Shown: positions 13,094 to 53,203 of the stretch, in pieces
Layout: every line of letters starts with the position of its first letter
Position numbering within the stretch: the stretch's first letter is position 1
Translations under genes and position numbers: made by a program
Origin: Candidatus Micrarchaeota archaeon
Lineage (GTDB): Archaea; Micrarchaeota; Micrarchaeia; Anstonellales; Bilamarchaeaceae
Direction: 5' to 3'
Assembly: GCA_016932815.1 (NCBI GenBank)
Contig: JAFGCC010000025.1
Span: 7,133-71,132 of the forward strand
Length of the DNA: 64,000 nt
Notes under the pieces: model-generated
Databases searched by the model: none
Seen by the model: the letters and a program-made list of their open reading frames with translations, nothing else
Told to the model about the DNA's origin: nothing

Positions 13094-13261
13094 TGGTTCA
13101 CCTTGTGTTTTTGCCCAAATCGCACCCAACTATTAAAATCCTTATTAGGGGAATTTCGGCAAAGAGCGAAATTCCGCCTGCCTTCCCGGTGCTCCCTACG
13201 CCTCCCTGCTGGAGGGAACTGCCACTGAATGCTTTTTATAATTTGCCTGAAAGTCCCCCCC

Positions 13262-16200
13262 ATGCAAAAATGCAATATACCTCCCTTTTTGGTGCTCATG
13301 GTTGCACTAATCATGAGCGCAGCTTCATTCTCTTACTATGAGTATGGGGGAGCCCTCTACTGCAACACTACCTGCGACGACTGCGAGGACGCGCTCAACA
13401 ACGCAACCTACACTACCGTTTACCTGAACTCCTCCCTTTCTTCGCCAGGCGCAACCTGCATAAGCAATCCCAGCGGCTTCTCCAACAAGGTCTTTGACTG
13501 CCAGGGGAACACAATCACGGGCACGGGAAGCGGCTACGGAATCTACATCTACTCCCCAGCCAAGACCAACCTCACAATAAAGAACTGCCAGGTTTCGGGC
13601 TTCAACTACAACGTATATGCAAGATACCTATCATATTCCCACCTGGACAACCTCACAATCTTCAACTCCTCCACGGATACGCTGTACATCCGCCAGATGG
13701 GCAACTCCACTATCTCCAACACCACGGCCTGCAACTCCTCCCACGAGGCGTTCGGCTTCGACTATTCCGGTGACACCCTCATAATAAACAACACATTCTG
13801 CAATGCCACCCAGCAGGCCCTAGAAGTAAGGGGGTCAATCAACAACACTTTCATCTACAATAACTTCTACAATGCGACTGCGGGAATAGACTTCCACTAT
13901 GCGATGGAGGACTACCTCTACAACACGATTGCCAACAACACGATTTACGACGTTTACCGCGGAATCGCCTTAGCCGAGGGTTTCGTGCACAACCTGATAG
14001 TGAACAATACAATAACCAGCCTCGCCTATTGCCCCCTCGACAGCCGTGAAGGCCACTACCTCTCCATGGAATACTATTATGCTTCAAGCTGTGACAACAC
14101 GATTGAGAACAATACCGGGGACGGAAGGCCCATCTACCACTACCACGATGAAGCGGTGGACCTCAGCGATTTCGAGGCGGCAGAACTCATGCTCTGCAAT
14201 GCGGACGACAGCACGGTGCAGAACGTAACCCTGATAGGGGGAGGAGGAGGCCTATTCAGCATGTTCTCAGACAACCTCATCGTAAACTCGAGCTACTCTT
14301 ACAATGCATCCTGCGGATTCAGGATAAACTACTGCGCATTTACCCTGGTAAACAGCGTAGCCCAGGAAAACGCCCACAGGGACGTGGGCATCAGCCCCTA
14401 TTCCGAAGCCTTCAACATAATCTGCGACCAGCTGAACATCACCAACGTCACGGGTTCCGGAGGCCTCCCCATAAACTTCACCAACGTGCCGGTGGAATGG
14501 AGCGATTTCGAATCATCGCAGGTAATCCTGTGTGGCGCCAACTATTCCAACATAAGCGGGATGACCGTTTCCGGCTCCAGCACGCACAGGAACAACGGCG
14601 TTGACTTATACTCCGCTTACAACATCAACATAAGCTCGTCCACGTCCGATTCCAACTTTTTCGGTTTCCACTACTATTACTGCCACAACATCTGGCTCTA
14701 CAACAGTTCTGCAAGCGGCAATGCGGCAGATGGGATTTACGCGTATTCGTACCCCTACAGCAACAACCTCTCCATAATAGGGAACACCGCAAACGGCAAC
14801 GGGGAGCACGGCATCTACCTGTGGCCGGCAAGGGACAGCACGATTTCGTCCAACACCGCCTCGGACAACGAGTTTTCGGGCATAAACGTGGATTACGAGT
14901 CATCCAACATAACAGTGGATTCGAACACCGCCTCCGGAAACGGAATGGAGGGAATCGGGGTATATTCCTCCTTCAACGTAACCGTTTCCAACAACAGGGT
15001 ATATTCCAACGGGGATTCGGATTCCGAAGTAATCGCGGACGACCCGTTTTTCAATTTTGACTGGTTCCCATACCCCGCCTTTGCGGGGATAAGGATTGAG
15101 TATTCCGACTCATCCTACAGCGCGGACATAACGCTGGCCAACAACACGGTTTACGGAAACGAGTATTACGGCATAGTCGCAAACCTCTCGGACAACGTCT
15201 CCTCCACCAACGACCGCGTTTATGGCAACGGCTTAGCGGAGATATACGCGGGTACCGACGGTACGGCAAGGGAGGTTTACTTTACCGCAATGCTCCTTGA
15301 TTCCTCGGATTACCCGAACGTGACAATCAGCGACCGGCTCGACTCCAGCACTGCATATACAATCGCGAAGGTTTCGTCTCCCAACACCAACTATCCAGGC
15401 GGAACCGCAGTCCAGAACAGGCTAATCAACGTAACCTACATAACCGGCTCCCCGACAATAGATTCATTAACCTGGGCCTGGGGAAACCCGGAGCAGAACG
15501 ATTACGATGAGTCCACTTTCGACTTGTGGAGGTACGTAATAAGCTGGGTGGACCTCAATGCAACCAGCAACACTGCCTCCAATGAACTCAACTACTCTTC
15601 AATAAGCACTGCGGGGGTTTATGGGATGCTCGGAACTTATTTCTGGGGAGACACGGACGATGGCGGCAACGGGCCTGAGCCTGAGTGCGAATCCGATTCC
15701 GACTGCGGAACCTGCGAGGAATGCAGTCGGGGCGAATGCATCCTCCCAAGCGGGGCGTGCCGCTCCGTTTCGGGCTGCACCGGAGCCGGATACTTATGCA
15801 TATCCTGCGAATGCGTCCCTCCCGAATGCATATCTGATTCCGATTGCAATGAGGGATACGAATGCGAGGATTACGAGTGCGTTGAAATTTACATTGAGCC
15901 AGAATGCGCCTCGGACCAAGACTGTGGAGGATGCGAAGAATGCATTGGGGGTGAGTGCGTTCTCCCAAGCGGGGTTTGCTTGTCCGATTCGGAGTGTGCA
16001 GGCGAGGGGGAAGTGTGCGAATCGTGCGGATGCGTGCCTCCCGAGTGCACCAGGGATTCCGACTGCACGGGGGAAGGCGAATCCTGCGTGGATTATGCAT
16101 GCATCCTGCCCGAATGCACAACGGATTCGGAGTGCGCACAGAATGAAGAATGCAGCGATTATGCCTGCGTGGAAAACAAATCCCCACAGGGGGGCACCAC

Positions 16201-16387
16201 CGGAGGCAATGAGCGGGGGCAATCCCAGGAAGTCCCGGGCGCTGGAACCGGAGAGCCCGGAGCCGGTGAAGAAACCGGGGCCGGAATGCCCTCCCCAATC
16301 GAACTGCTCCTTGGAGCGGGAATCGGGGTGGCGGTGCTCTACTTCGCCTGGAAGTTCCTCCTGGGAGGAGCCAGTGCGGGAAAGTGA
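13262..16387 (+). CDS. Large secreted surface protein, paralog 1: signal peptide, right-handed beta-helix (NosD/PbH1-like) repeats, conserved GSPTID..W.W module, Cys-rich repeats, C-terminal TM anchor
   Basis: N-terminal signal peptide MQKCNIPPFLVLMVALIMSAASFS. Many NxxT/NxS-containing beta-helix turns. C-terminal tandem CxSDSDCxxCEECxxGECxLPSGxC units. Terminal hydrophobic helix GAGIGVAVLYFAWKFLLGG. Very high N-glycosylation sequon density. Confidence 0.75.
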   Translation: MQKCNIPPFLVLMVALIMSAASFSYYEYGGALYCNTTCDDCEDALNNATYTTVYLNSSLSSPGATCISNPSGFSNKVFDCQGNTITGTGSGYGIYIYSPAKTNLTIKNCQVSGFNYNVYARYLSYSHLDNLTIFNSSTDTLYIRQMGNSTISNTTACNSSHEAFGFDYSGDTLIINNTFCNATQQALEVRGSINNTFIYNNFYNATAGIDFHYAMEDYLYNTIANNTIYDVYRGIALAEGFVHNLIVNNTITSLAYCPLDSREGHYLSMEYYYASSCDNTIENNTGDGRPIYHYHDEAVDLSDFEAAELMLCNADDSTVQNVTLIGGGGGLFSMFSDNLIVNSSYSYNASCGFRINYCAFTLVNSVAQENAHRDVGISPYSEAFNIICDQLNITNVTGSGGLPINFTNVPVEWSDFESSQVILCGANYSNISGMTVSGSSTHRNNGVDLYSAYNINISSSTSDSNFFGFHYYYCHNIWLYNSSASGNAADGIYAYSYPYSNNLSIIGNTANGNGEHGIYLWPARDSTISSNTASDNEFSGINVDYESSNITVDSNTASGNGMEGIGVYSSFNVTVSNNRVYSNGDSDSEVIADDPFFNFDWFPYPAFAGIRIEYSDSSYSADITLANNTVYGNEYYGIVANLSDNVSSTNDRVYGNGLAEIYAGTDGTAREVYFTAMLLDSSDYPNVTISDRLDSSTAYTIAKVSSPNTNYPGGTAVQNRLINVTYITGSPTIDSLTWAWGNPEQNDYDESTFDLWRYVISWVDLNATSNTASNELNYSSISTAGVYGMLGTYFWGDTDDGGNGPEPECESDSDCGTCEECSRGECILPSGACRSVSGCTGAGYLCISCECVPPECISDSDCNEGYECEDYECVEIYIEPECASDQDCGGCEECIGGECVLPSGVCLSDSECAGEGEVCESCGCVPPECTRDSDCTGEGESCVDYACILPECTTDSECAQNEECSDYACVENKSPQGGTTGGNERGQSQEVPGAGTGEPGAGEETGAGMPSPIELLLGAGIGVAVLYFAWKFLLGGASAGK

Positions 16388-16477
16388 AGCCTCCAAAAGC
16401 CCCCCCAACGGGGCATCTTTATTATCCTGCCCGCAGCCGCACGCGAAGGGGGGAGGCGCCCCCCATGCTTGCGCGTT

Positions 16478-16939
16478 TCATATCCCCTCAAACTCGTCAA
16501 GGCGCTTGACAACGTTCAGCACGATATTCGTATTCGTCTTGTCCACTCCCTCTATTGCAAGTAGCTTTTTTACAAGGGCGGACAATTCCCCCCTGCTCCG
16601 GCATATTAGTATCGCAACCGCGTCGTATTTTCCGGTGGTGTCGTAAACCGCCGCAACCCCGCGCAATTTCGCCATTTTCTCCTGCACTTTGAGCATGTCC
16701 CCTGAAATTGCTATCTGGGTTACCGCCATGAATTCAAAACCGAGCTTTAGGTAGTTGATTCTCGCAGAATAGCCCTCAATCACCCCGCGGCCCTCAAGCT
16801 TCTTTATCCTCTCTATTACTGCGGCCGGGCTCATCCCGATTTCCGCTGCAAGCTCCCTATAAGAGCGCCTGCAGTTCTTCCGCAGTTCCAAGAGTATCAG
16901 CCTGTCCTGTTCTTTTAGCTCCACGTGTTTGCTTTCCAT
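16478..16939 (-). CDS. lrp: Lrp/AsnC-family transcriptional regulator
   Basis: N-terminal HTH (LDRLILLELRKNCRRSYRELAAEIGMSPAAVIERIKKLE) plus a C-terminal RAM domain. Confidence 0.85.
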   Translation of the reverse strand: MESKHVELKEQDRLILLELRKNCRRSYRELAAEIGMSPAAVIERIKKLEGRGVIEGYSARINYLKLGFEFMAVTQIAISGDMLKVQEKMAKLRGVAAVYDTTGKYDAVAILICRSRGELSALVKKLLAIEGVDKTNTNIVLNVVKRLDEFEGI

Positions 16940-17017
16940 ATAAACTCACCGCACAATCCCAAACATTTGTGATAAAAGTTTATTAATCTTCCTAATCTTT
17001 GTCTGGAAAATTTGAGA

Positions 17018-17031
17018 AAAATAATAAATAC
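17018..17031 (+). promoter_or_regulatory. Putative archaeal TATA box for glnA
   Basis: AAAAATAATAAATA lies about 45 nt upstream of the glnA ATG, in a 135-bp AT-rich divergent intergenic region shared with lrp. Confidence 0.35.
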
Positions 17032-17073
17032 TTCCAAATTTCCACCCCAATCACAAACAAAAGGGTGCGAACA

Positions 17074-18399: not shown

Positions 18400-18512
18400 G
18401 CCCGCATCAGGCTGCAGCATCCTTGGGGCCGGAAGCTTCCCCCTTGAATACTGGGGGGAACTCCGGTCCCTCCCTGCATTTTGTTTTTCCTTGCTGCCTC
18501 TATGTTGCCGGC

Positions 18513-19028
18513 TTACTGCTTCCTTGCTATTTTTCCGTGTTTGGCATAAGGTTTGGAAGTAGGAGATTCAAGCCGAGAGAAAACGACCTGGCTAATCCTC
18601 ATTCCCGAATTCAGAACAATCGTAAACGGCGCATTATTGACAATCTCGAAAACCTGGTGGTTGCTGCTTCCCGGCTGTACGACCGCAGAGGTGACGTGCA
18701 CTCCCAGCCCCATCCTCGCATACCTGCTGCGCCCCTCCAACCTTCCCATCAGGTTCGGCGCAAGCGTGAGCTTTTCCCTGCTTACTCCCAGGCACATCTC
18801 TCCCTCGCCTAAAACCACGGAGTCCGCCACCACCTTTTTTGTGGCACTCTTGAAATCCACCTTGCCCAAATCCACCACGGAATTCAGGTATTTCTCCTTG
18901 AAGAACCAGAACACGCTGCCCAGGCTCAAGTCCACGCTTGCCTGCCCGATTTGCCCAGGCTCAAGGGGCGAGATTTTCAATTCCCCCTTCTTTATCGCCT
19001 TCTTTATGTCAACATCCGAAAGGAACAT
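18513..19028 (-). CDS. dcd: dCTP deaminase (dUTPase superfamily)
   Basis: MFLSDVDIKKAIKKGELKISPLEPGQIGQASVDLSLG matches the Dcd N-terminal consensus. Confidence 0.8.
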   Translation of the reverse strand: MFLSDVDIKKAIKKGELKISPLEPGQIGQASVDLSLGSVFWFFKEKYLNSVVDLGKVDFKSATKKVVADSVVLGEGEMCLGVSREKLTLAPNLMGRLEGRSRYARMGLGVHVTSAVVQPGSSNHQVFEIVNNAPFTIVLNSGMRISQVVFSRLESPTSKPYAKHGKIARKQ

Positions 19029-19131: not shown

Positions 19132-22071
19132 ATGTGCAAAAACTACGCATTTACCGCAGCAATTTTGCTGTTTCTGGCGTTCTCGGCATCGTTTGCGATA
19201 GACGTTTCCTCGTGCAACACCACGATTAACGCCTCCGGCGAATACGTCCTGACCTCCAACCTGAGTGGCGCAGGAATTAGCGTAACCGGAATCGACCAGG
19301 TCGCTGAGGCGTGCATACTAATCCAGGCGAGCGACGTTTCAATTGACTGCAACGGGTACAACATTTCCAACAACGGCACATCCGATGCAGCGGGAATAGC
19401 CGCAAACGGCACGGCTTCCAGCACATACACCAACATAACAATCAAGAACTGCCCTTCAATAGACGGATACTTCTCCCAGGTAATACTCAACCACACTGCC
19501 AATGGCAGCATACAAAACGTAAGCGCCCACAACAGCGCTGCGGTAGGCGTATACCTTATCTACACTTCCGGCACCAACCTGACCAACAGCACGTTCTATG
19601 ACGTGGATTATGGGGCATATATCTACAAGTCCAACTCCACTTTCGTTGCTAACACCACAGCATATGCAATCGGGACCATGGGCATACTCCTTGAAAATTC
19701 AAGCTACTGCACAGTGGCAGAGAACATGGTGCACAACTGCTCCACGTATGGGGGCATTGCCATGTATTACGATTCCGATTACAACATGATAATAAACAAC
19801 AGTGTCTGGAACTCCACAGTCGGGGTTGAGCTAAACAGGGTTTCCCACAACAACTTCACCCGGAACCTGCTCTGGGACAATGCATATGCGGGAGTCTATG
19901 CCAATAACGTGTCATGGGAGAGATTCGAGTCTAATACGATATACAATAATACCGATTGCGGGATGAATCTTAGTGCTTTCTCCAACAACACTCTCCTAAA
20001 CAACACCGTGCGCAACCATACCAACACGTATGGGATATACCTGCACACGTACTCTGGATGGAACAACCTCACCAATAACACGGTTTATGGGAATGAAGAC
20101 AGCATATACTTTACCGGCTCAACATACAATGTCCTGCGCGGGAACTTCGTGTACGACAACGAAGAGGGGATTTACTTTATTGGTTCGGCACACAACCTGG
20201 TGTGGGGAAACTTCGCGTATGACAATAATGATGTAGGGATATATCTGGACACTGGTTGCAATTACACCAATATTACAAATAACACAGTCTATGGTAATTA
20301 CGATGGATTTTTTCTGGAAGGGGGCGTAGGTAATAGGGTCTGGGAGAACCAGGCTCGGGATAATTCTGAAGGATTATACGTGCATTCTACAGGATATAGC
20401 TACTTTTATGACAATGACCTGCACCTTAATGTAGATGGCGGAGTCATATTCGTCAGCCACTCGGACAACAATACTCTGGCAAACAATACCGTGCGCAACT
20501 GCCAGGACTATACGTCGGTATCCATTGCCGATTCCGACAACAACACCATAACTGGCAACATGGTGTATGGTTCGTTGGATTACGAGGGATTCTATTTCGA
20601 CACCGTTATGGAAACGCTCGTTGCAGACAATGTGGTGTATGATTGCGGCGACGATGGGATATCCATGTATTATGGCGTGGAAACAACGATTGCCAATAAT
20701 ACTATATACAATGGTTCCAACGAGGGTATCTACCTCTACCGCTGTACAAACGTTACAGTTGAGGGCAATACAATACACTACAGCCCGGATTATCCTGGTA
20801 TCTCCATGTATCGTTGCCCCAACGTTACCCTATCCAGCAACATCCTCTATGCAAACCTTCAGGCGGTATATCTGCGTGACAGCAACTACACGATGGTGGA
20901 AAATGAACTGCGCGGACCAACCGGGGCACAGGCAGACTACACGGTGCTCTCGGCAGAGGACATATTGAATGTGACGGAGCAGTACAGCATAAACTGGAGC
21001 GATTCCCCCTCAACCTTCCCGAGCGGGAAGGCTTCCTTTGCGGGCAAGTTCATCAACATAACGACCGTTGCGGGAAGCCCCAGCATAGACACGATTTCCT
21101 GGTCCTGGCTCCAGGCCGAACTCTCAGGCTACGATGAGGACACCTTTGAATTATGGAGGTACAACGGCTCCAACTGGACGCTCCTCAACGAAACTCCGGA
21201 CACTTCATCCAACCTGTTTACCCAGGGAGACCTGGTACCCTCAAGCATATACGGAATCCTCCAAACCCCCTCGAATGAATCCGGAGGCACTGATGTGGAG
21301 GACTACGAATGCCTCTCCTCGTCCGAATGCCCCGACTGCTACATCTGCAGCGGCCACGAGTGCGTGCTTCCTTCGGGCTCATGCGCAACTGCCTCGGATT
21401 GCTCAGGAGGATACCCGTTCTACACCTGCGAGGAGTGCTCCTGTGTAGGGCACCAATGCAACGTTGATTCTGATTGCGGCGCGGGATACTCCTGTGAAAA
21501 CGGGGCGTGCGTCCCGCCAGAATGCACGCAGGATTCGGACTGCGATGCGGGATATTCGTGCGAGAATTACGAGTGCACTCCCCCGGAGTGCCTTGAAGAT
21601 TCCGACTGCACAGCAGGAGCAACCTGCTCAAACTACGAATGTACTCCTCCAGAATGCACGGTGGATTCCAACTGCAAATCCGGGGAGATGTGCGAGAACT
21701 ACGTGTGCGTCCCATGGAAGTGCAAGGCCAACGCAGACTGCCAGAATGGCTTCTACTGCGACAAGGGGGCGTGCAAGAAAGAGAGCATCCCCGGAGGCCC
21801 GGGAAGCAGCAGCGGAGGAACTCCCTCGGGAACACCCGGAGGAACCGGGGAAGCGGAAGTTCCCCAACCTGAAGAAGAGGGCCCCGGAACGGAACAGGTG
21901 GAATATGCGTTCCCGTTCCTTGAAGGGGAAGCCGGAAGCGGCATAATGCCCGCAATCCAGGTTAGCGAGGAACTAAAGGTTTCAGGATGGTGGATATTCC
22001 TGTTCCTCCTGATTCTTGTGGGAGCATTCTACTTCCTGCAAACTAGGAACAAGGGAAGGCGGGAAGAGTAG
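19132..22071 (+). CDS. Large secreted surface protein, paralog 2 (beta-helix + GSPSID module + Cys-rich repeats + C-terminal TM anchor)
   Basis: Signal peptide MCKNYAFTAAILLFLAFSASFA. NosD-like PbH1 repeats. The module FINITTVAGSPSIDTISWSWLQ...FELWRYNGSNWTLLNETPDTSSN. A C-terminal cysteine-rich array ending in a TM helix (WWIFLFLLILVGAFYFL) followed by a basic tail. Confidence 0.75.
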   Translation: MCKNYAFTAAILLFLAFSASFAIDVSSCNTTINASGEYVLTSNLSGAGISVTGIDQVAEACILIQASDVSIDCNGYNISNNGTSDAAGIAANGTASSTYTNITIKNCPSIDGYFSQVILNHTANGSIQNVSAHNSAAVGVYLIYTSGTNLTNSTFYDVDYGAYIYKSNSTFVANTTAYAIGTMGILLENSSYCTVAENMVHNCSTYGGIAMYYDSDYNMIINNSVWNSTVGVELNRVSHNNFTRNLLWDNAYAGVYANNVSWERFESNTIYNNTDCGMNLSAFSNNTLLNNTVRNHTNTYGIYLHTYSGWNNLTNNTVYGNEDSIYFTGSTYNVLRGNFVYDNEEGIYFIGSAHNLVWGNFAYDNNDVGIYLDTGCNYTNITNNTVYGNYDGFFLEGGVGNRVWENQARDNSEGLYVHSTGYSYFYDNDLHLNVDGGVIFVSHSDNNTLANNTVRNCQDYTSVSIADSDNNTITGNMVYGSLDYEGFYFDTVMETLVADNVVYDCGDDGISMYYGVETTIANNTIYNGSNEGIYLYRCTNVTVEGNTIHYSPDYPGISMYRCPNVTLSSNILYANLQAVYLRDSNYTMVENELRGPTGAQADYTVLSAEDILNVTEQYSINWSDSPSTFPSGKASFAGKFINITTVAGSPSIDTISWSWLQAELSGYDEDTFELWRYNGSNWTLLNETPDTSSNLFTQGDLVPSSIYGILQTPSNESGGTDVEDYECLSSSECPDCYICSGHECVLPSGSCATASDCSGGYPFYTCEECSCVGHQCNVDSDCGAGYSCENGACVPPECTQDSDCDAGYSCENYECTPPECLEDSDCTAGATCSNYECTPPECTVDSNCKSGEMCENYVCVPWKCKANADCQNGFYCDKGACKKESIPGGPGSSSGGTPSGTPGGTGEAEVPQPEEEGPGTEQVEYAFPFLEGEAGSGIMPAIQVSEELKVSGWWIFLFLLILVGAFYFLQTRNKGRREE
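21290..22071. repeat. Roughly 0.8 kb dispersed repeat copy A (3' Cys-rich/anchor region of surface-protein gene 2), highly similar at DNA level to 29520-30325
   Basis: Long runs of identical nucleotides are visible, for example ..TACATCTGCAGCGGCCA.GAGTGCGTGCTTCCTTCGGG.. and ..TGGAA.TGCAAGGCCAACGC.GACTGCCAGAA.GGCTTCTACTGCGA... Confidence 0.7.
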
Positions 22072-22306: not shown

Positions 22307-25300
22307 ATGGTGAAGACAATGAACAAAGGATTGGTTTTGCTTGGAATTCTGGTGCTTTTTGGGGCGGTTTTTTCAGCCGGGATGGGACATAGGGAAGTTT
22401 CGTACAGGGACAACGACAAGGTTGCGGAAATCTGGCACGATTCTTCCAAGATGGCAACCGTTGAAATCAGGAATTCAATGGAAAAGCGCGGCGGCCTCAA
22501 TTACCTGACCGACTGCGGAATCCTTACCTGCTCCCTTTATCTTAGCGTTTCCGCAGAATCCGCAATGGGAATTAGCGGGGCCGCAAGCAACCTCCACGCA
22601 ACGTACGCAGGAACATATTACAAAAGCATAGAACCCGTTGAAATAAAAGAGCCAATCTACGAATTCGTTGAAGAAGAATACACTTATGAAGAATGCGCAA
22701 ACACGACAATCGAGGAGGATGGCAGAAACGAGACCTCCCTCGAGTGCACCGAATCAACAGGCACCAGGACTGCAAGGATAATCACCGGATACGAAACGCA
22801 CATGGAAATGCGGGAAGTGTGGAAAGAGGAGCCCGGAAGGTTCGGCCACGGCCCCGTGGAAGTGAGGATTGATTTCGTAAAAGACGACCCCGCCGCGGTA
22901 GTGGACCTCTTTGCGGTAGTTGACAATGCCCGCATTGAGAGGTGGGCATGGTGGGATAGCAGTTGGCTCTACAAAGTCAGGGTAAACCTCACTTCCGGAG
23001 TGGAGGAAACCCTGAATGATTATCCCGCGCATTTCCAGCTGGACACCGCCACCCTGATTGGCGATTCTAAGATGCAGTCAGACTGCGGCGACCTCCGCGT
23101 AGTAAGCTGCGATGAGAGCGGGGAGGTCCCATTCGAGATGGAATATTGCAACCAGGGCAACACCGACATTTACGCAAGAGCGACCCTTGAGCCTTCCCCC
23201 GCGCTAAACTGCGTCTACGTATACTACGGGAACCCCGGAGCAGAAGACGGGCAGGACACCTGCAACGTCTGGAGCAACAATTTCACGAGGGTTTACCACT
23301 TCGAAGAGCCTATTTATTCGGGAAGCATGTTCGACAGCTCCTGCCACGCAAACGGAAGCTACAACGGGACAGGCTACATGGAAGATGGCATATGGGGAAA
23401 CGGAGTCCGGCTCTACGCCAACTCGGTAACATACGTGGAATTCCCCAATACGTACGAATGGGCGGACGGGAACGCATCATTTAGCATATGGGCAATCGCA
23501 AACTCCTCCCAATATGTGGGCAATACAATCTTCTCCCTGGTCAGCGCCTACACGGACCGCACGGGCCTTTGGGGGTGGAGCGTGAAACTATATCCCCAGA
23601 ACATTATAGCAAACGCGCGCATGGCGGATGTAATAGTTGAGTCACAGCCAAGCGGCGACACGAGCATGACCGGGAAATGGAACTCATGGATGCTCTGGTC
23701 GGTATCCCAGAACTTCTCAGGATACGGAAGCGCAATGTTCGTAAACGGGAGCCTGGTCGCAACCCAGGCCAACTCAGCCGTGAACAACGGCTACCCGGGG
23801 GTGCACATCGGCAACGATTACATATACCAGAATAGGGCCTGGAGAGGGGCCTTTGATGAGTACCGCGAGAGCAACGTAACAAGGAGCGCAAACTGGACGA
23901 TGGCGGAATTCCTGCAGGATTATGTGGTTGGAAACGAGGAATACCCCGAATCCACTCTTGCCAGGACGTCAATGGCCCTATCTCCTTCCACGCTGTACAT
24001 AGACGTGGTGGATGTTACCTGCTCTGTGAGCTATGACTCATCTGTGGACGAAGAATTCACCGCAAGCATGGGCCTGGCCATAAACGGGGTCCCAATAGGG
24101 GAATTCAACGTTACAAACAGCACATACCAGAACAAGGTTGTGTGGAACCAGACTTTCAGCGTGGAGGATTATACGCCCCTGGGGTCAAACCTCTCCTGCT
24201 GGAGCGAGGCCCACGATATTGAAACAACGCTTGAGATAGCATACACCGAGAACAAGAGCATAACCAACCTCGTGCCAGGATGCATGGTCTTAGATGAGGC
24301 GGGAACCTTTGAGCTAGAGGGCGGCATCTACGGAGCAGAAGACGTAAGCGGGGTATCCGGAATCTCAAGCGCGTGCGTGATAATCAACCATGGCGAAGTT
24401 ACGCTAAACTGCAGCGGCTACTCAATGGACGCAAACAACACCCCGGATTCTGCGGGCATACTGGTAAATGCAACCGGGGCATTGATTACTAACTGCCCCT
24501 CAATTTCCAGCTATGAAAAGGGAATCTATTTCCAGAACGTGCAGCAGGGGGCGGCGGAAAATACGAGCGCCTACAATTCAACCGAGGCAATAGCAGTCTA
24601 TGCCTCCTCTGGGATAAACCTCACAGGATGCATCTCCCACAACAGCACAAAAGGGATAATGCTTGATGGTGCGACCGGAATCCGCCTGGAAGGCAACATC
24701 TTCTTTGGCAACGGCTACGATTTCCATGTGGGCAACAGCAACTACACGATGCTCACCAATTACTTTACCCCGGATGGAACATTTACCAATTACACGAACC
24801 TCAGCGTGGCTGATGCCGTAACGCTTTCCGGGGCTTACATGGTTAGCTGGAGCGCAAACCCCGGCGTCGCGATTGCGGGCACGAGCTTTGCACAGAAATT
24901 CATCAACATCACCACAATTGGCGGAACGCCATCAATAGATGAATTGAACTGGAGCTGGAGCTGTTCGGAGTCATTGTGCTACAAGGAGGAAACGCTCAAC
25001 CTCCACCACCTCAATTCCACGGGGGGCTGGACACTCTTGAACGACACCCCGGACACGGCCAACAACGTCCTCACGCTCTATGATTTGGAGCCAGAAGGCG
25101 TTTATGGGATTTTTGACAACAACCTGCCTCCAGGGGTGGGGAACGTGACATTGAACACAACCAACGCAACCAACTCATCTTTGGAAAACCTGACATTGTA
25201 CATGGATTCCTATGACCCCAACGGGAACAGGATAAAGAACATAACCAACTGGTATTATGGCAACAATTACAAGGGCCCCAATGCGCCGACTAGTTCCATA

Positions 25301-26401
25301 ACCGCCCTCAATATGCCCTTTGAAGGCGGAAGCTGCCCGGAGTACACAAAGGACTACTCCAACCACTCCTACAACGGGACCGTGGTCGGGGCGACCTGGA
25401 ACGCAACCGGAGGGCACGACGGGTACGGAGCCTACCATTTTGACGGGGACGATTACATCACGGCTTCCGACTCTTTGCTTAACCTGCCAAGAGGATATAC
25501 GATGTCCGCCTGGTTCAACACTTCGGACAAGAGCCGCGACCACTTCGTCTTGTCCTGGGGGAGCAACACCCCGCTTGGCGCAAGGAGCATATTCGTGGAA
25601 GAAGGTACGGGATATTTCTCCTTCTCAGGATACGTGGAAACCTACCACACGTCTGTTGATGTGGCAGACGGGGAATGGCACCTGCTGAACGCAGTGCACG
25701 CTTCCGATGACATGGTAACCTTCTACGTTGATGGGGAATATGCGGGAGGGGACGGGCTGCCCCTGACTCAGACAATTACCTACACGGAAACGGTAATCGG
25801 GGCCGACCCTGACAAGGCGCAGAACGCCAATGCGACAATAGATGACGTGGTGATTTTCAACCGCGCCCTGAGCGCGGAGCAGATCCAGGCACTCTATGAG
25901 AACCGGACGGACATAATCGTGCCAGAAGAAACAGAGCTTTCGGACAAATGGTACACCTGCGTGACTCCCAACGACGGGACGCTGGATGGGAACGAAACCT
26001 GCTCAAACGACATGTTCCTAAGTGGCATCACATCATGCATGCAATTAAACTCCATAGCGAATTACACCCTGGTAAACGACATATATGGCGCCCCTTTTGA
26101 GCTTGACCCGTCAATGGGCGTTTTAGATGTGTGCCTGGCCCCCTACGCATGGGCAACCATAGACTGCAATGGCCATAGCATAATAAACGATGGCACCCCC
26201 AACGCTGCAGGAGTGATACTCAGGGATTACGGAGAGAACACGCGGGACTGCGCGTTTATTGCAGGCTATGAGGTAGGCATTTACTTCCACGGCGCAGACC
26301 ACTCGGAAATCAGGAATGTAACAACCGCAAACTCGACGGGGTCCGGAATATACATCTATAGCTCCGAACACATTAGTATCGTCAATTCCACCCTCGGGTA
26401 A
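22307..26401 (+). CDS. Large secreted surface protein, paralog 3, with two LamG/ConA-like lectin domains and beta-helix repeats; C-terminally truncated relative to its paralogs
   Basis: Signal peptide MVKTMNKGLVLLGILVLFGAVFSAG (ATG at 22307; the ORF is open from 22016 but overlaps gene 2). It carries the Laminin_G_3 hallmark ATIDDVVIFNRALSAEQIQALYE plus a second degenerate copy. It has a GTPSID module. It ends inside a beta-helix head domain without Cys-rich repeats or a TM anchor. Confidence 0.7.
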   Translation: MVKTMNKGLVLLGILVLFGAVFSAGMGHREVSYRDNDKVAEIWHDSSKMATVEIRNSMEKRGGLNYLTDCGILTCSLYLSVSAESAMGISGAASNLHATYAGTYYKSIEPVEIKEPIYEFVEEEYTYEECANTTIEEDGRNETSLECTESTGTRTARIITGYETHMEMREVWKEEPGRFGHGPVEVRIDFVKDDPAAVVDLFAVVDNARIERWAWWDSSWLYKVRVNLTSGVEETLNDYPAHFQLDTATLIGDSKMQSDCGDLRVVSCDESGEVPFEMEYCNQGNTDIYARATLEPSPALNCVYVYYGNPGAEDGQDTCNVWSNNFTRVYHFEEPIYSGSMFDSSCHANGSYNGTGYMEDGIWGNGVRLYANSVTYVEFPNTYEWADGNASFSIWAIANSSQYVGNTIFSLVSAYTDRTGLWGWSVKLYPQNIIANARMADVIVESQPSGDTSMTGKWNSWMLWSVSQNFSGYGSAMFVNGSLVATQANSAVNNGYPGVHIGNDYIYQNRAWRGAFDEYRESNVTRSANWTMAEFLQDYVVGNEEYPESTLARTSMALSPSTLYIDVVDVTCSVSYDSSVDEEFTASMGLAINGVPIGEFNVTNSTYQNKVVWNQTFSVEDYTPLGSNLSCWSEAHDIETTLEIAYTENKSITNLVPGCMVLDEAGTFELEGGIYGAEDVSGVSGISSACVIINHGEVTLNCSGYSMDANNTPDSAGILVNATGALITNCPSISSYEKGIYFQNVQQGAAENTSAYNSTEAIAVYASSGINLTGCISHNSTKGIMLDGATGIRLEGNIFFGNGYDFHVGNSNYTMLTNYFTPDGTFTNYTNLSVADAVTLSGAYMVSWSANPGVAIAGTSFAQKFINITTIGGTPSIDELNWSWSCSESLCYKEETLNLHHLNSTGGWTLLNDTPDTANNVLTLYDLEPEGVYGIFDNNLPPGVGNVTLNTTNATNSSLENLTLYMDSYDPNGNRIKNITNWYYGNNYKGPNAPTSSITALNMPFEGGSCPEYTKDYSNHSYNGTVVGATWNATGGHDGYGAYHFDGDDYITASDSLLNLPRGYTMSAWFNTSDKSRDHFVLSWGSNTPLGARSIFVEEGTGYFSFSGYVETYHTSVDVADGEWHLLNAVHASDDMVTFYVDGEYAGGDGLPLTQTITYTETVIGADPDKAQNANATIDDVVIFNRALSAEQIQALYENRTDIIVPEETELSDKWYTCVTPNDGTLDGNETCSNDMFLSGITSCMQLNSIANYTLVNDIYGAPFELDPSMGVLDVCLAPYAWATIDCNGHSIINDGTPNAAGVILRDYGENTRDCAFIAGYEVGIYFHGADHSEIRNVTTANSTGSGIYIYSSEHISIVNSTLG

Positions 26402-26632
26402 GCCTGAACCGGGGAGGCAGAGCGCCGCCGGCACGCTGAGCGCATGGCAGCAGGGGCACACGGCAAGCGGGGCGCCCCCCTGCAATCGGCATTCCGCCTG
26501 CGCCTCCCGCTTCCTAGGAAACGGGGCGTGCGGGCGCAGGGGCATCCCGGCATTGGGCGCAATCGCCCCACCCCCGCTTCTCTGAGGGCACCCATCACAA
26601 CATTTATATCCGTTGTCTGCAATCCATTTGGT

Positions 26633-29600
26633 ATGTGCAAGAATTTCGTTAAATTGGCAGTATTGTTGGCATTTTTCGCATTCTCCCTCTCCTTTGCGGT
26701 GGATGTCAGCACGTGCCAGGCGATTACCTCTTCTGACACGTATGACCTTACAACCGACCTTACGGGGGCGCCAATAGCAATAACCGGAATATCGCAGATA
26801 GATCAGGCGTGCCTGGCAATCCAGGCTGACAACGTAGTCATAGACTGCCATGGCCACTCAATTAGCAACACAGGGGTTTCCGATGCTGCAGGGATAGCGA
26901 GGAACCTGACTTCCACAAGCACGGTGACAATCCGCAACTGCAGGATTGCATATTACCACCAGGGTATCTCCCTGAGATACCTCTCGGGGGGAGCCGTGTT
27001 GAACAACACGATATTCAACACCTCGCACTACGGGCTTTCGATGTCCCAGAGCTGCTCTGGCACCGTAGTTTCCAACAACACGTTCCACAACAACACCGAC
27101 CATGCGTTGTACATTGGGGGGAACTCCGATAACAACATCATTACCAACAACACCCTATGCAACACAAGCGGCGCGTTTTCGGCCTTTAATCTGGGCAGCA
27201 ACTGCGAATACAATACTTTCGAAGGGAACCTCCTCTATGGAAACTATGTGGGCATAGAGCTTGGCTATGCCTCCAACAACAGCATCGAGAACAACACCAT
27301 AAGGAACAATAGCTGGCATGCAGTCGTCATGGACCATGGCGGGGACAACAACCTGACCAACAACATAGCCTATGGCAACTATTACGGGTTCTACGTTGAC
27401 CCCTATTCGCAGGGAAACGTTTTCGTAAACAATACTGCCTACGACCACATCTATTACGGGTTTTACGTCTACCGCGATAACGAGGGCACAACCCTAATCA
27501 ATAACACCGCCTACGGCAACAGGTATGGTTTCACGGTCGGTGCAGATTCCCACAACACCACCCTGTGGGGGAACACCGCCTACGAAAACGAGGACGGTTT
27601 CAGCATAGCCTCAAGCGACAACACCCTGACCAACAACACCGCATACAACAACACCCACCGTGGGTTCTACCTGTATACCGGCTACGGGAACACGCTCATA
27701 AACGACACTGCATACAACAATGGGGATGAGTTCTGCGTAATAGGCAGCAACTACACGCTGGAGTCGTTCCTCTTCCTAAACCCGTCCGGCTCCCAGGTGA
27801 ATTACACCAACCTTTCAATAGGCGACATCATGGACACCTCCTCGGAGGAATATGCGATAGGGTGGGGCGAATCCCCCGGCTCTTCCCCCAGCGACAGGAG
27901 TTCATTCGAAAACAAGTACCTCACGATATCCGCTGCGGGCGGCAGCCCAAGCATAGATACAATAACCTGGCACTGGCAGGATTCGGAGACTTCCGGATAT
28001 GTGGAAGCAATGCTTGAACTCTGGAAGTACAATGCTTCGGGTTGGACGCTCCTAAACAACACTCCTGACACTTCCGCCAATACGCTAACGCAGTATGCAA
28101 TGTCCCCTTCAAGCACATATGCGATATTCGAAAACGTTTCCGTGGACTGCGAAGTTATCTCCTCCCCGGGCACTTACAACCTCTCCTCCAACCTCAGCGG
28201 CGCCCCGAACCCGCTCTCCACCGTGGCGGGGACTACCGCCGCGTGCATAATAATCGCCTCTTTGGGCGTAACCCTAGATTGCAAGGGCTTTACCATAACC
28301 AACAACGGCACTTCCGATGCGGTAGGAATAGCCGTAAACGGCTCTTCCACGATAGATTACACCGGAGTGGCGATACAAAACTGCCCGGATATCCATGGCT
28401 ATGAAAACGGGGTGCAGCTATACCGCACCGCCGCAGGCACAATACGGAATTCAAGCATGTCGGATGGGCGGTATGGGATATACGTGTATGCTTCCCAGAA
28501 CAATTCGATAACCAACAACACCGTGCACAACAACTCCCAGGATGGGATATACCTGTATTCAAGCGTGGGCAACAACGTAACGGGCAACACCGTGCACAGC
28601 CATTTCTCAGCAGGGATTGCCCTCAGCACGCTGTCTATGCACAACAACCTCTCCAACAACGTGCTATACAACAATTCCGACCCGAGCTTCTACATCTCGC
28701 TTAGCTCCAACAACACGATTTCCAACAATACCGTCTACAACACTTCTGGTTCCGGGATATACCTCTTCTCATCCTCCGAATGCAACCTTACCGGCAATAC
28801 GGTATATGATAGCACCAGCGGAATAGAACTCAACTCGAATTCAATGCGCAACAGGGTAAGCGGCAACACGCTTTATGATAACGCAATGTGCGGAATCTGG
28901 CTCCAGTCCAGCTCTTCCAACAACACGGTATACGATACCTCGGTGTCCAACAACACTTACGGGATTTTCGCGCTCCAGAGCCACGACAACAACTTTACCG
29001 AAAGCTTCATCTGCAACAATTCGGATTACGGGCTTTACATGGTCTCTAGTTACGGGAACAGGCTGGCCAACTACAGCATCTACGGCGACCAGTATGGCGT
29101 ATACTCTTCGAGCAGCAAGTACGTGCTGGATACTGTCAGCTTCCTTCCCTATGGCGGTGAGTCCGTGGATTATTCCGCCCTCTCGCTCACCGATTCCAAC
29201 GGGGCAGGCGCATACAGGATAAACTGGAGTGCCACCCCGGGAAGCTCCCCTTCCTCGCGGAGCAGTTTCGAGAACAAGTTCCTCAACATTTCAACCGCTT
29301 CCGGGAGCCCCAACATAACCAGCATAGAGTGGAGCTGGGAAGATTCGGAATCATCCGGATACACTGAATCGGACTTTGAGCTCTGGAAGTACAACGCTTC
29401 CGGCTGGACGCTCCTAAACGACACCCCTAATGTCTTTTCCAATACGCTAACCCAGTATGCAATGCTGCCAGGAAGCATATACGGAATCTTCGCATATGAA
29501 ACTCCCACTTCCACAGGAGGGGATGATGAGGATTATTCGTGCATGACTTCCTCGGACTGCCCGGAATGTTACATCTGCAGCGGCCATGAGTGCGTGCTTC

Positions 29601-30325
29601 CTTCGGGTTCGTGTGCAACCTCTTCCGATTGCTCGGGCAGCGCCCCATTCTACAACTGCGAGGGCTGCTCGTGCGTTGGATACGAGTGCAATTCCGCTTC
29701 GGACTGCGGCGCAGGGTACTCATGTGAAGAAGGCGAATGCGTGCCCCCAGAATGCACGCAGGATTCCGACTGCGATTCCTTTGGGGCAGGATATTCATGC
29801 GAGAACTATGAATGCGTGCCCCCGCAGTGCCTAAATGACTCTGCCTGCGGTGCAGGCGGAACCTGCTCAAACTACGTTTGCATCCCCCCAGAATGCACAA
29901 GCAATTCCAATTGCGGTTCAGGCAAGGTGTGCGAAAACTACAAGTGCGTGCCCTGGAAATGCAAGGCCAACGCCGACTGCCAGAACGGCTTCTACTGCGA
30001 CAGCGGAGTATGCAGGAAAGAGAGCATACCCGGAGGCCCTGGCGGAAGCAGCGGGGGCAACGGAGGCTCCGGAGGCAAGCAGGCAGGTGAATCAGTTGGC
30101 GAAGCGGAAGTGCCACAGGAGCAGGAGCCAGAAACCGAGCAGGTAACCCAGCCATTCCCGTTCCTAGAAGGAGACACTGAGGGGGGAATAATCCCCAACG
30201 TAGTGATAAACGAGGAAACCAAGATTTCAGGCGGATGGGTGTTCCTATTTGCGCTTGCGGCAGTTGCGGTGCTCTACTTTGCGTTCCACAGGGGAAGGAG
30301 AAGGGGAAGGGAAAAAGAGGAGTAG
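26633..30325 (+). CDS. Large secreted surface protein, paralog 4 (internally duplicated beta-helix + module, Cys-rich repeats, C-terminal TM anchor)
   Basis: Signal peptide MCKNFVKLAVLLAFFAFSLSFA, homologous to the gene 2 N-terminus. Two beta-helix plus GSPSID/GSPNIT module units. The C-terminal Cys-rich region is near-identical to gene 2. TM helix GWVFLFALAAVAVLYFAF followed by RGRRRGREKEE. Confidence 0.75.
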   Translation: MCKNFVKLAVLLAFFAFSLSFAVDVSTCQAITSSDTYDLTTDLTGAPIAITGISQIDQACLAIQADNVVIDCHGHSISNTGVSDAAGIARNLTSTSTVTIRNCRIAYYHQGISLRYLSGGAVLNNTIFNTSHYGLSMSQSCSGTVVSNNTFHNNTDHALYIGGNSDNNIITNNTLCNTSGAFSAFNLGSNCEYNTFEGNLLYGNYVGIELGYASNNSIENNTIRNNSWHAVVMDHGGDNNLTNNIAYGNYYGFYVDPYSQGNVFVNNTAYDHIYYGFYVYRDNEGTTLINNTAYGNRYGFTVGADSHNTTLWGNTAYENEDGFSIASSDNTLTNNTAYNNTHRGFYLYTGYGNTLINDTAYNNGDEFCVIGSNYTLESFLFLNPSGSQVNYTNLSIGDIMDTSSEEYAIGWGESPGSSPSDRSSFENKYLTISAAGGSPSIDTITWHWQDSETSGYVEAMLELWKYNASGWTLLNNTPDTSANTLTQYAMSPSSTYAIFENVSVDCEVISSPGTYNLSSNLSGAPNPLSTVAGTTAACIIIASLGVTLDCKGFTITNNGTSDAVGIAVNGSSTIDYTGVAIQNCPDIHGYENGVQLYRTAAGTIRNSSMSDGRYGIYVYASQNNSITNNTVHNNSQDGIYLYSSVGNNVTGNTVHSHFSAGIALSTLSMHNNLSNNVLYNNSDPSFYISLSSNNTISNNTVYNTSGSGIYLFSSSECNLTGNTVYDSTSGIELNSNSMRNRVSGNTLYDNAMCGIWLQSSSSNNTVYDTSVSNNTYGIFALQSHDNNFTESFICNNSDYGLYMVSSYGNRLANYSIYGDQYGVYSSSSKYVLDTVSFLPYGGESVDYSALSLTDSNGAGAYRINWSATPGSSPSSRSSFENKFLNISTASGSPNITSIEWSWEDSESSGYTESDFELWKYNASGWTLLNDTPNVFSNTLTQYAMLPGSIYGIFAYETPTSTGGDDEDYSCMTSSDCPECYICSGHECVLPSGSCATSSDCSGSAPFYNCEGCSCVGYECNSASDCGAGYSCEEGECVPPECTQDSDCDSFGAGYSCENYECVPPQCLNDSACGAGGTCSNYVCIPPECTSNSNCGSGKVCENYKCVPWKCKANADCQNGFYCDSGVCRKESIPGGPGGSSGGNGGSGGKQAGESVGEAEVPQEQEPETEQVTQPFPFLEGDTEGGIIPNVVINEETKISGGWVFLFALAAVAVLYFAFHRGRRRGREKEE
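29520..30325. repeat. Roughly 0.8 kb dispersed repeat copy B (3' region of surface-protein gene 4)
   Basis: It pairs with 21290-22071. The encoded peptides differ at only a handful of positions. Confidence 0.7.
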
Positions 30326-38092: not shown

Positions 38093-38093
38093 C

Positions 38094-53193: not shown

Positions 53194-53203
53194 TGGTGAA
53201 TCA

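Follow-up and report, generated by a model that had tools for sequence, protein, structure and literature searches.

Four paralogous beta-helix proteins sharing a previously uncatalogued cap domain in a Micrarchaeota genome

Archaea of the DPANN group live on the surface of other archaea, yet to our knowledge few of the molecules by which they attach and choose a host have been identified. A stretch of 64,000 nucleotides (the window) from a Candidatus Micrarchaeota archaeon, a DPANN member, contains four neighbouring genes encoding very large proteins rich in N-glycosylation sequons. What are these proteins, and might they be among the molecules by which such an organism engages its host?

Gene cluster and domain architecture

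The ORF calls agreed with the original prediction of four neighbouring genes encoding 1041, 979, about 1365 and 1230 aa, the cluster being interrupted by lrp, glnA and dcd. All four genes are on the plus strand, and NCBI assigns them to a Candidatus Micrarchaeota archaeon. The genes, with NCBI accessions for g1 to g4, are the following.

13262..16387, plus strand: g1, 1041 aa (NCBI MBN2122555.1)
16478-16939, minus strand: lrp, between g1 and g2
16999-18399, plus strand: glnA, between g1 and g2
18513-19028, minus strand: dcd, between g1 and g2
19132..22071, plus strand: g2, 979 aa (NCBI MBN2122559.1)
22307..26401, plus strand: g3, 1364 aa, or 1360 aa if translation begins at ATG 22319, the start given by NCBI and Logan (NCBI MBN2122560.1)
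26633..30325, plus strand: g4, 1230 aa (NCBI MBN2122561.1)

Across positions 17770-28535, including the g3 stop codon, the sequence agrees without a difference with an independent Logan assembly of SRR13394437. The four proteins are paralogues (pairwise BLASTP identities of 27-46%, with E values down to 1e-165). All four match Pfam Beta_helix (PF13229; 40-243 bits, cut-off 25.9) and NosD (PF05048; 35-207 bits, cut-off 23.6) above the gathering cut-offs and all contain the module described below. Hence, the proposals of a single family built from a common domain kit and of NosD/PbH1-like beta-helices were both borne out.

The prototype single-unit protein is g2, which consists of a signal peptide (aa 1-22), a beta-helix of about 24 rungs (aa 23-589), one module (aa 590-712), a Cys-rich stalk, a linker, a transmembrane (TM) helix and a basic tail. 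An AlphaFold2 model of g2 residues 22-716 (pLDDT 91.5, pTM 0.85) is a continuous beta-helix of three strands per rung, with regular E-E-E rungs up to residue ~573, followed by a beta-sandwich. The signal peptide of g1 precedes NosD-like beta-helix regions, which are followed by a single module, a seven-unit Cys stalk, a Gly-rich/acidic linker and a C-terminal TM helix. The g4 protein has two units: after the signal peptide come helix 1 with its module and helix 2 with its module, and then the stalk, linker, TM helix and basic tail. In g3 the signal peptide is followed by an N-terminal region having no assigned domain, DUF2341, a ConA-like region, a short beta-helix, the module, Laminin_G_3 and a terminal beta-helix head of about 125 aa. 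The domains peculiar to g3 are located as follows.

23081..23308, plus strand: DUF2341, a borderline match (24.9 bits versus a cut-off of 23.4, segment scanned alone)
25442..25888, plus strand: Laminin_G_3 (PF13385; ConA-like lectin/glucanase), Pfam 91 bits versus a cut-off of 27.6 (83 bits for the segment alone)
26015..26398, plus strand: C-terminal partial beta-helix head, alignable with the heads at the N termini of g2 and g4

The proteins resemble other PF05048/PF13229 proteins (NosD, AlgG/AlgE and tailspikes) in having HMM matches well above the cut-offs, in the three-strand-per-rung fold and in their structural neighbours. Tailspikes, which are trimeric, also close with a C-terminal beta-sandwich, as does the unit seen here. 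The proteins are not NosD orthologues: NosD proper (TIGR04247) scored only 81.6 bits for g2 and 88.3 bits for g4 versus a cut-off of 300. No nos genes were found among the neighbours of the cluster, which lacks the copper-maturation operon context of NosD.

The cap domain and its distribution

The recurrent module had been described as a segment of about 60 aa, but the real domain is twofold longer at 123 aa. In a six-frame scan of the window a local HMM detected exactly the five predicted copies and none elsewhere.

15272..15637, plus strand: copy 1 (g1), local HMM iE 7e-49, the most divergent copy (alignments A1/A2)
20899..21267, plus strand: copy 2 (g2), local HMM iE 2e-57, the AlphaFold2 target
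24752..25123, plus strand: copy 3 (g3), local HMM iE 1e-53
27761..28135, plus strand: copy 4 (g4, unit 1), local HMM iE 4e-56, with the next beta-helix head directly after it
29129..29497, plus strand: copy 5 (g4, unit 2), local HMM iE 1e-53

Modelled alone, the g2 copy is a beta-sandwich (pLDDT 90.7). Searches of Pfam, NCBIfam and the sequences of solved structures were all negative, in keeping with the original prediction that the module has no named-family match. An exhaustive module HMM search recovered 538 representative proteins (clusters) at E<=1e-3, of which 235 scored at <=1e-30, and the named organisms were almost all Micrarchaeota (including Micrarchaeia) or Iainarchaeum. These relatives carry up to 13 modules per protein and reach ~7000 aa in length. 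The median module-to-module spacing is 403 aa, and in the giant relatives the helix plus module unit of ~600-750 aa is repeated head-to-tail. The repeating unit is thus a beta-helix with the module as its C-terminal cap. The module represents a previously uncatalogued domain family, found in neither Pfam nor NCBIfam and largely limited to Micrarchaeota and Iainarchaeota. It provides an HMM-searchable marker of a large family of predicted surface proteins in these two groups, and the repeating unit could be modelled with high confidence. Note that the NCBI product label of family members is merely "beta-helix repeat-containing".

Signal segments, stalk, anchor and sequons

An N-terminal signal-like segment is present in all four proteins, as had been predicted, when judged by hydrophobicity and by eye rather than by a trained archaeal predictor. 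By hydrophobicity only g1, g2 and g4 have a C-terminal TM helix, one in each, and the same three proteins have the Cys-rich stalk.

15686..16168, plus strand: g1 Cys-rich stalk, seven 4-Cys units of ~22 aa each
16298..16366, plus strand: g1 C-terminal TM helix (Kyte-Doolittle 19-aa window 1.87)
21310..21774, plus strand: g2 Cys-rich stalk, seven units, TIGR04201 Myxo_Cys_RPT 40.3 bits (cut-off 25)
21982..22041, plus strand: C-terminal TM helix of g2; the tail after it reads QTRNKGRREE
29540..30013, plus strand: g4 Cys-rich stalk, seven units, TIGR04201 29.4 bits (cut-off 25)
30230..30289, plus strand: C-terminal TM helix of g4; the tail after it reads HRGRRRGREKEE

The proposed succession of stalk, linker, TM helix and basic tail in three of the four proteins holds for g2 and g4; in g1 the TM helix is present but the tail is not basic. 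Likewise, tandem Cys-rich stalks do occur in three proteins, but their description as EGF-like was incorrect. Each stalk has seven units of four Cys per 22 aa versus the six-Cys EGF signature, and no EGF-family Pfam model matched even at E<=10. The repeat (C-x5-C-x5-6-C-x4-C) instead resembles TIGR04201/DUF7107. TIGR04201 exceeds the NCBIfam cut-off in g2 and g4 (no match was reported for g1), and Pfam DUF7107 falls just under its cut-off (23.2 versus 24.6 bits). The only Pfam matches to the stalk at E<=10 were DUF7107, Dickkopf_N and Dumpy_DPY, each below its cut-off. Stalk homologues are few and carry PF23416, one being a deltaproteobacterial Pal lipoprotein. Unlike other TIGR04201/DUF7107 repeats, those found here form a fixed seven-unit block between a head and a predicted membrane anchor, and do so in an archaeon. 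No CTERM model in NCBIfam matched the proteins and the PGF tripeptide is absent, giving no sign of an archaeosortase sorting signal (PGF-CTERM and related). By hydrophobicity g3 has no TM helix, and it lacks a stalk. Its end point is kept in a 70% identical orthologue (P0149), and thus the lack of stalk and anchor is genuine.

The proteins contain 37-49 N-glycosylation sequons each (3.5-4.6 per 100 aa), a density about 10-fold that of the other window proteins and 2-2.5-fold the composition-shuffled expectation (z 4.9-7.8). Sequons were said to occur every few residues, but the average spacing is 22-28 residues. Within the module six sequon positions are each present in 56-85% of 61 diverse modules, with a mean of 6.4 sequons per module. 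Some sequons may be structural by-products, because the Asn-rich "NNT" motif of the helix rungs supplies part of the excess. These counts suggest that the four proteins are probably heavily N-glycosylated. No AglB gene was found among the window ORFs scanned.

Head divergence and possible functions

Comparison with a single syntenic genome (L004) showed that the heads diverge faster than the stalks and the neighbouring genes. The neighbouring genes retain 85-90% amino acid identity, except for a 352-aa ORF at 31793-32851 (47%), and g3 is 70% identical. Within g4 the stalk and anchor are 78-90% identical, the modules 62-67% and the helices only 40-45%. Moreover, the L004 counterpart of g4 has one unit rather than two, one whole unit being missing. 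These differences give an initial sign of much faster evolution in the heads than in the stalks and of a unit number that varies between close relatives. The rapid head divergence could instead be due to relaxed constraint or to phage or immune-type pressure rather than to host matching.

We favor the view, to which we assign a probability of roughly 55%, that the four are adhesin-like or recognition-like surface proteins having variable glycan-binding heads on a conserved stalk. The proteins are predicted to be exported through Sec and would be placed on the cell surface. Their building block would be a NosD-type right-handed beta-helix rod with the 123-residue beta-sandwich cap at its C-terminal end. 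One such unit (g1 and g2) or two (g4) would sit atop a stalk of seven disulfide-type 4-Cys repeats followed by a flexible Gly/Pro/acidic linker and the single C-terminal TM helix. Thus, g1, g2 and g4 would be type I anchored proteins with the helix held away from the membrane. In this scheme g3 would join DUF2341 and the lectin-like LamG domain to a short unit and, lacking an anchor, would be released or retained by other proteins. The beta-helix, module and LamG heads may bind glycans or glycoproteins on the surface of a host or partner cell, and would diversify quickly by sequence divergence and by unit gain and loss as the stalk and anchor are conserved. The suggestion that these are adhesin or host-recognition candidates is reasonable. 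The organism belongs to the Micrarchaeota, a DPANN group known as episymbionts; Micrarchaeota have been described as symbionts attached to their hosts in which LamG and other surface proteins are expanded (PMC5498576). A more tentative extension treats the beta-helix plus module as a shuffling cassette present in 1-13 copies per protein, such that rapid turnover of its sequence and changes in copy number on a conserved stalk set host or partner specificity. The module would then be a domain specific to Micrarchaeota and Iainarchaeota in which the sites of glycan attachment are conserved. Such a cassette would be analogous in function to the swapping of phage tailspikes and receptor-binding proteins, although on a cellular symbiont.

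Beta-helices of this type also serve as enzymes and structural proteins. The proteins might be surface polysaccharide-active enzymes (lyases, hydrolases or epimerases of the CASH/pectin-lyase fold) that cleave or modify extracellular polysaccharide or the glycans of the host envelope, with the module as an accessory beta-sandwich of the kind found beside glycoside hydrolases. A Foldseek search with the whole g2 unit gave 141 PDB matches at E<=0.001, and the best 50 listed are all carbohydrate-active proteins of the tailspike, lyase or epimerase type. The closest solved analogues, which also speak for glycan-binding heads, are carbohydrate-binding or -processing beta-helices: phage tailspikes (including the HK620 tailspike endoglycosidase), K1 capsule lyase, AlgG, AlgE4 and DFA-IIIase. 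A degradative role has also been proposed for the pectin-lyase-like proteins of Nanobdella (10.1101/2023.10.27.564410). However, the TM-scores to tailspikes are low (0.14-0.2), and the weak NCBIfam matches to the mannuronan C5-epimerase AlgG (NF038177) reach only 16-26 bits versus a cut-off of 700. The catalytic DPHD is missing, the DPH[DE] epimerase motif being absent from all four proteins, and the Pfam and NCBIfam scans found no glycoside hydrolase or polysaccharide lyase family. Helices of 40-45% identity beside housekeeping genes of 85-90% in close relatives, together with a whole unit that can be gained or lost, would be unusual for a conserved active site. An enzymatic role thus seems unlikely.

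Somewhat less likely still is that these are S-layer or main structural envelope proteins with the stalk and TM helix as lattice anchor, a function also put forward in the original prediction. Archaeal S-layer glycoproteins classically combine a signal peptide and numerous sequons with a long stalk and a TM anchor at the C terminus. The surface-layer proteins of Methanosarcina include beta-helix, PKD and beta-propeller domains (Jing et al. 2002, as cited in PMC5498576), and bacterial beta-helix S-layer proteins exist (10.1101/2024.05.28.596244). However, the structure-based survey in the latter report (bioRxiv) places Micrarchaeota in an MSTP-like beta-sandwich class rather than a beta-helix class, and this placement, together with heads that far outpace the neighbouring genes in divergence, disfavors the S-layer role. 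No Pfam match to the MSTP-like/DUF1608 S-layer tile domain was found in any of the four proteins. Moreover, g3 has no anchor, and four different architectures with relatives of 1-13 units and up to ~7000 aa fit one lattice poorly. It is very improbable that the module corresponds, in a prokaryote, to the autoproteolytic or force-sensing ZU5/FIIND/GAIN-B domains (ankyrin, UNC5, NLRP1/CARD8 and adhesion GPCRs), cleaving itself or freeing the beta-helix head from the stalk. The structural scores are marginal, with no Foldseek match at E<=0.001 and sequence identities of 6-13%. Among 333 modules the cleavage motif H[FL][STC] was found in just 10, and no alignment column has a conserved Cys or a conserved His (at most 40%, at a variable position). 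In multi-unit proteins the module lies between helices rather than solely beside the stalk. The module further differs from these domains in its archaeal, predicted extracellular setting and its roughly six conserved sequons.

An adhesin or recognition role would have precedents, and the locus is not a new kind of system: other DPANN lineages are already on record as having beta-helix glycoproteins of a comparable sort. In Nanobdella aerobiophila, MJ1_0451, MJ1_0701 and MJ1_0776 are surface proteins with a pectin-lyase fold, 908-1320 aa in length and bearing 36-52 sequons, for which host interaction has been proposed (bioRxiv 10.1101/2023.10.27.564410). Nanohaloarchaeum has been the subject of a similar proposal (10.1101/2023.02.24.529834). 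Our proteins (979-1364 aa, 37-49 sequons) are similar in DPANN origin, size, tens of sequons, predicted surface location and the combination of parallel beta-helix and beta-sandwich domains. The phyla differ (Micrarchaeota here, Nanobdellota there), and the likeness is drawn from the published description. The Nanobdella account mentions neither the 123-aa module nor the 4-Cys stalk, nor a tandem helix plus module unit. The Laminin_G_3 domain and second ConA-like region of g3 recall the LamG-like surface proteins expanded in Mia14, also of the Micrarchaeota, and in other DPANN (PMC5498576), for which a host-interaction role has likewise been proposed; this likeness is by description rather than by direct comparison, and the g3 LamG is embedded among the beta-helix units and the module.

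Gene structures and protein make-up

The four predicted surface-protein genes (g1-g4) are flanked upstream by pyruvate:ferredoxin oxidoreductase subunit genes and downstream by a radical-SAM gene. As originally predicted, the cluster is broken by lrp, glnA and dcd, which sit between g1 and g2-g4:

13262-16387, +, g1, 1041 aa
16478-16939, -, lrp, between g1 and g2
16999-18399, +, glnA, between g1 and g2
18513-19028, -, dcd, between g1 and g2
19132-22071, +, g2, 979 aa
22307 or 22319-26401, +, g3, 1364 or 1360 aa
26633-30325, +, g4, 1230 aa

Window positions 17770-28535 are base-for-base identical in an independent Logan assembly of run SRR13394437, and thus the gene structures, including the g3 stop codon, are no artefact of a single assembly. 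The exact proteins are found at NCBI (MBN2122555, g1; MBN2122559, g2; MBN2122560, g3; MBN2122561, g4), where the contig is 126.7 kb and all four are named 'right-handed parallel beta-helix repeat-containing protein [Candidatus Micrarchaeota ...]'. The remaining genes of the window, among them HerA-NurA, MetRS, GDH and a type IV pilus-like ATPase plus membrane-protein pair, fit an archaeon.

TATA-box-like elements (TTTTTATA or TTTATAT) occur at 13230-13240, 19100-19110, 26598-26608 and 22160-22175. The ATG codons of g1, g2 and g4 each lie 25-33 nt downstream of such an element, a spacing that points to a promoter for each of these genes and to very short leaders. For g3 the sole element is some 145 nt ahead of the ATG at 22307, and so this gene may have a long leader; alternatively, translation may begin at the 22229 ATG, and the signal peptide would then be preceded by 26 more residues. 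The g3-g4 spacer (26402-26632) and the g1-lrp spacer (16388-16477) are 68% and 67% GC, respectively, versus 53% for the window. A structured RNA in the g3-g4 spacer was considered and rejected, as there was no Rfam match, the fold z-score was 0.57 versus shuffles and the nucleotides are not conserved in the syntenic metagenome contig L004.

The original description of the cluster was right in substance, with four details (module length, sequon spacing, the g1 tail and the EGF-like label) in need of correction. The four proteins do form one family (27-46% pairwise identity, E down to 1e-165), and Pfam Beta_helix and NosD repeats score above their gathering cut-offs in every one. Judged by hydrophobicity, each of the four N-termini has a single hydrophobic segment, a short n-region of basic character and small residues ahead of the probable cleavage site, and g1, g2 and g4 (not g3) have one more hydrophobic helix at the extreme C-terminus. 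The only other stretch above the hydrophobicity threshold is g4 aa 528-555, in the second beta-helix head. The signal-like N-termini would direct Sec export, and the single C-terminal TM helix with its basic tail would give type I anchoring. Note that a basic tail had also been assigned to g1, the tail of which is not basic. A PGF-CTERM sorting signal was sought in g1-g4 and not found.

Between the module, a domain that caps the beta-helix, and the anchor of g1, g2 and g4 is a stalk of exactly seven C-x5-C-x5-6-C-x4-C units of about 22 aa each; the even and regular Cys spacing would be consistent with disulfide-stabilized repeats. These had been called EGF-like, but no EGF family was matched. 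The repeats match TIGR04201 Myxo_Cys_RPT above its cut-off in g2 and g4 and come near DUF7107 and Dickkopf_N but under their cut-offs. Stalk homologues in the large database are few and carry PF23416; one is a deltaproteobacterial Pal.

The proteins have 37-49 N-x-S/T sites each (3.5-4.6 per 100 aa), which is 2-2.5-fold the number expected when the composition of each protein is shuffled (z 4.9-7.8) and about tenfold the density in 19 other window proteins (0-1.2 per 100 aa). The predicted sequon richness is therefore real, although the sites fall roughly every 25 residues rather than every few. Archaeal AglB uses N-x-S/T for N-glycosylation, and the proteins would be modified in this manner. 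All are strongly acidic, with 113-170 Asp plus Glu residues versus 29-59 Lys plus Arg residues.

The order of elements in g3 is signal peptide, about 230 residues without assignment, a borderline DUF2341, a ConA-like region, a short helix, the module, Laminin_G_3 (91 bits) and, as the last element, a helix head of 125 aa. The possibility that g3 is a truncated pseudogene was rejected, given the same stop in the independent assembly, the like ending of an orthologue and the lack of any beta-helix continuation downstream in any frame. As that orthologue (P0149, from another metagenome; 70% identity along the full length) terminates at the same position, the g3 ending is judged to be genuine.

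The module and its family

The module had been described as about 60 aa. Alignment of the copies showed conservation far past that core, from F-x-N-P-x-G-x3-NYTNLS to Y-G-I-L, giving a domain of about 123 aa. A local HMM run over the six frames of the window found exactly the five copies expected:

15272-15637, +, module copy 1 (g1)
20899-21267, +, module copy 2 (g2)
24752-25123, +, module copy 3 (g3)
27761-28135, +, module copy 4 (g4, unit 1)
29129-29497, +, module copy 5 (g4, unit 2)

As had been proposed, the module matches no named family: Pfam gave no match at E<=10, no NCBIfam match of the full-length proteins covers it and PDB sequence searches with a 5-sequence or a 61-sequence module profile gave nothing. 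PDB sequence searches of g2 and g3 likewise gave nothing significant. The HMM search that the original prediction put forward as a check was made exhaustively over 1.84 billion cluster representatives, and 538 proteins at E<=1e-3 (235 at E<=1e-30) carry the module, in up to 13 copies and in proteins reaching about 7000 aa. These 538 clusters rule out an extremely rare module; the three relatives returned by a word-indexed protein search with the module profile are a sensitivity artefact. Indexed searching thus badly underestimates the size of this low-complexity, Asn/Ser/Thr-rich family (3 versus 538).

Family taxonomy was read from the names that sources give for a small subset of members, which is not a random sample. 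Carriers so named are Candidatus Micrarchaeota/Micrarchaeia (P0006, P0010, P0013, P0014, P0025 and the window proteins) and Candidatus Iainarchaeum (P0020 and P0031). One carrier, the 2711-aa P0023 on a 24.5-kb MAG contig, bears the NCBI label 'Patescibacteria group', which may be due to mis-binning or to genuine transfer between two lineages of episymbionts. A scan of GTDB genomes, a collection to which the genome of the window does not belong, gave a single match, on a Micrarchaeota contig.

Six module positions each have a sequon at a frequency of 56-85% (61 diverse modules), and the mean module has 6.4 sequons, which suggests selection for glycan attachment at fixed sites. AlphaFold2 with the 61-sequence alignment modelled the module alone with a pLDDT of 90.7 and a pTM of 0.84. 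Nine strands and one short helix make up this model. In comparison with solved structures only, its topology is read as that of a ZU5-like sandwich, with no homology that can be demonstrated.

When the g2 ectodomain was compared with the family by BLAST, head, helix and module proved to make up a unit of 600-750 aa that repeats head-to-tail in the giant relatives (P0043, 814-1498 and 1500-2283; P0014, 2313-3057 and 3063-3817; P0110, 23-726 and 733-1386), with a median module-to-module gap of 403 aa. In g4, which has two units, the first module leads directly into the second helix head. A C-terminal hydrophobic helix, usually followed by a basic tail, is present in 69 of the best 150 relatives. 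Many other relatives, giant ones among them (e.g., P0004, P0006, P0008, P0011, P0026 and P0038), end in a conserved segment given as '...DFELMVPT...ETYYFYANL' or, with alternatives at its variable positions, as '...(D/N)FE(L/I)(M/L)VPT...ETYYFYANL', and the carriers have no TM anchor. This segment, absent from the window, may be a different anchoring or sorting domain.

Divergence of heads and stalks

The metagenome contig L004 (JGI 3300039093) is syntenic with the window, having a g3 orthologue, a gene in the g4 position, radical SAM, two hypotheticals, PadR and the ABC/CARDB/MacB group.

Amino acid identity of window proteins and regions to L004
Radical SAM: 90.5%
ABC ATPase: 88.8%
CARDB protein: 87.2%
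437-aa hypothetical: 84.9%
g4 stalk, linker and anchor: 78-90%
g3: 70.5%
g4 second module: 62-67%
g4 second helix: 40-45%

The L004 protein in the g4 position is at least 958 aa and has one unit versus two in g4. At the nucleotide level window 26091-29336 has essentially no match to L004 save 246 nt at 27887-28131 (69% identity), which align module to module. The family is dispersed beyond this cluster, since two single-unit paralogues with stalk and anchor are encoded at unrelated loci. One (P0133, contig L005, GC 52.5%) lies beside exosome and SBDS genes in the Logan assembly of SRR13394437 and, given the same run and similar GC, may belong to the genome of the window. The other (P0146, contig L006) comes from the L004 sample and lies beside a 1508-aa gene without annotation. 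In this comparison with one genome, it appears that stalks are conserved, heads change fast, the number of units varies and paralogues are dispersed.

A 352-aa ORF (31793-32851, +) without a Pfam match is only 47% identical to its L004 counterpart versus 85-90% for flanking genes and is thus another fast-evolving gene beside the cluster. At 34647-39308 (+) are genes for an ABC ATPase, two MacB/FtsX permeases and a CARDB-domain protein whose N-terminus is signal-like, all syntenic with g3/g4 in L004; this block may be an export or surface-associated module.

Probable function

N-glycosylated beta-helix surface proteins are already known in DPANN and other archaea, and g1-g4 carry generic annotations. 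What is new is that the 123-aa domain, missing from the domain libraries checked, represents a sizeable family with its centre in Micrarchaeota and Iainarchaeota, that it caps a tandemly repeating helix unit, that its sequon positions are conserved and that heads and stalks contrast in divergence. These findings are of use in annotation and in the design of host-interaction experiments and should not surprise the specialist.

Structure prediction of helix plus module, also put forward originally, was done with g2 aa 22-716 (17 aligned sequences; pLDDT 91.5, pTM 0.85). The model runs from the head through a regular beta-helix of about 24 rungs and a short low-confidence loop (residues 578-580) to the sandwich. 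Its neighbours in the PDB are beta-helices that bind or process carbohydrates: the Klebsiella K1 capsule lyase, the tailspikes of HK620 and Det7, AlgG, AlgE4 and DFA-IIIase. TM-scores against the tailspikes are low, at 0.14-0.2, and against the epimerases moderate, at about 0.5 (target-length normalized).

Recognition proteins typically have variable heads on conserved stalks. We think it somewhat probable (about 0.55) that the heads recognize glycans or glycoproteins on the surface of a partner cell, given this arrangement, a carbohydrate-directed fold class and what has been reported for Micrarchaeota and other DPANN. Micrarchaeota are symbionts attached to hosts and have expanded LamG and other surface proteins (PMC5498576), and similar pectin-lyase-fold glycoproteins of other DPANN have been proposed to act in host recognition or wall degradation (10.1101/2023.10.27.564410; 10.1101/2023.02.24.529834). 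The fold neighbours would also favour an enzymatic depolymerase or modifier, but the helix is poorly conserved and the family tests failed, which makes this activity unlikely: NosD proper (TIGR04247) was rejected at 82-88 bits versus a cut-off of 300, and an AlgG-like epimerase at 16-26 bits versus a cut-off of 700 with the DPH[DE] motif absent. Formation of an S-layer lattice, the classical features of which are present, seems slightly less likely again. A self-cleaving ZU5/GAIN-like module is very improbable, since 333 modules have no conserved His or Cys column and only 10 have the H[FL][STC] autoproteolysis motif, leaving GAIN/FIIND-type cleavage unsupported.

About 21 kb from the cluster is a type IV pilus/archaellum-like locus (51475-58766, +) with a T2SSE ATPase (53204-55087), a T2SSF membrane protein (56805-57692) and flanking ORFs without assignment. 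LamG surface proteins of the Micrarchaeota Mia14 were reported to be linked to such loci. A 993-aa ORF (59408-62389, +) with only a weak DUF5122 beta-propeller match has an ordinary sequon density (0.6 per 100 aa) and may represent a further large protein, secreted or at the surface, of another kind.
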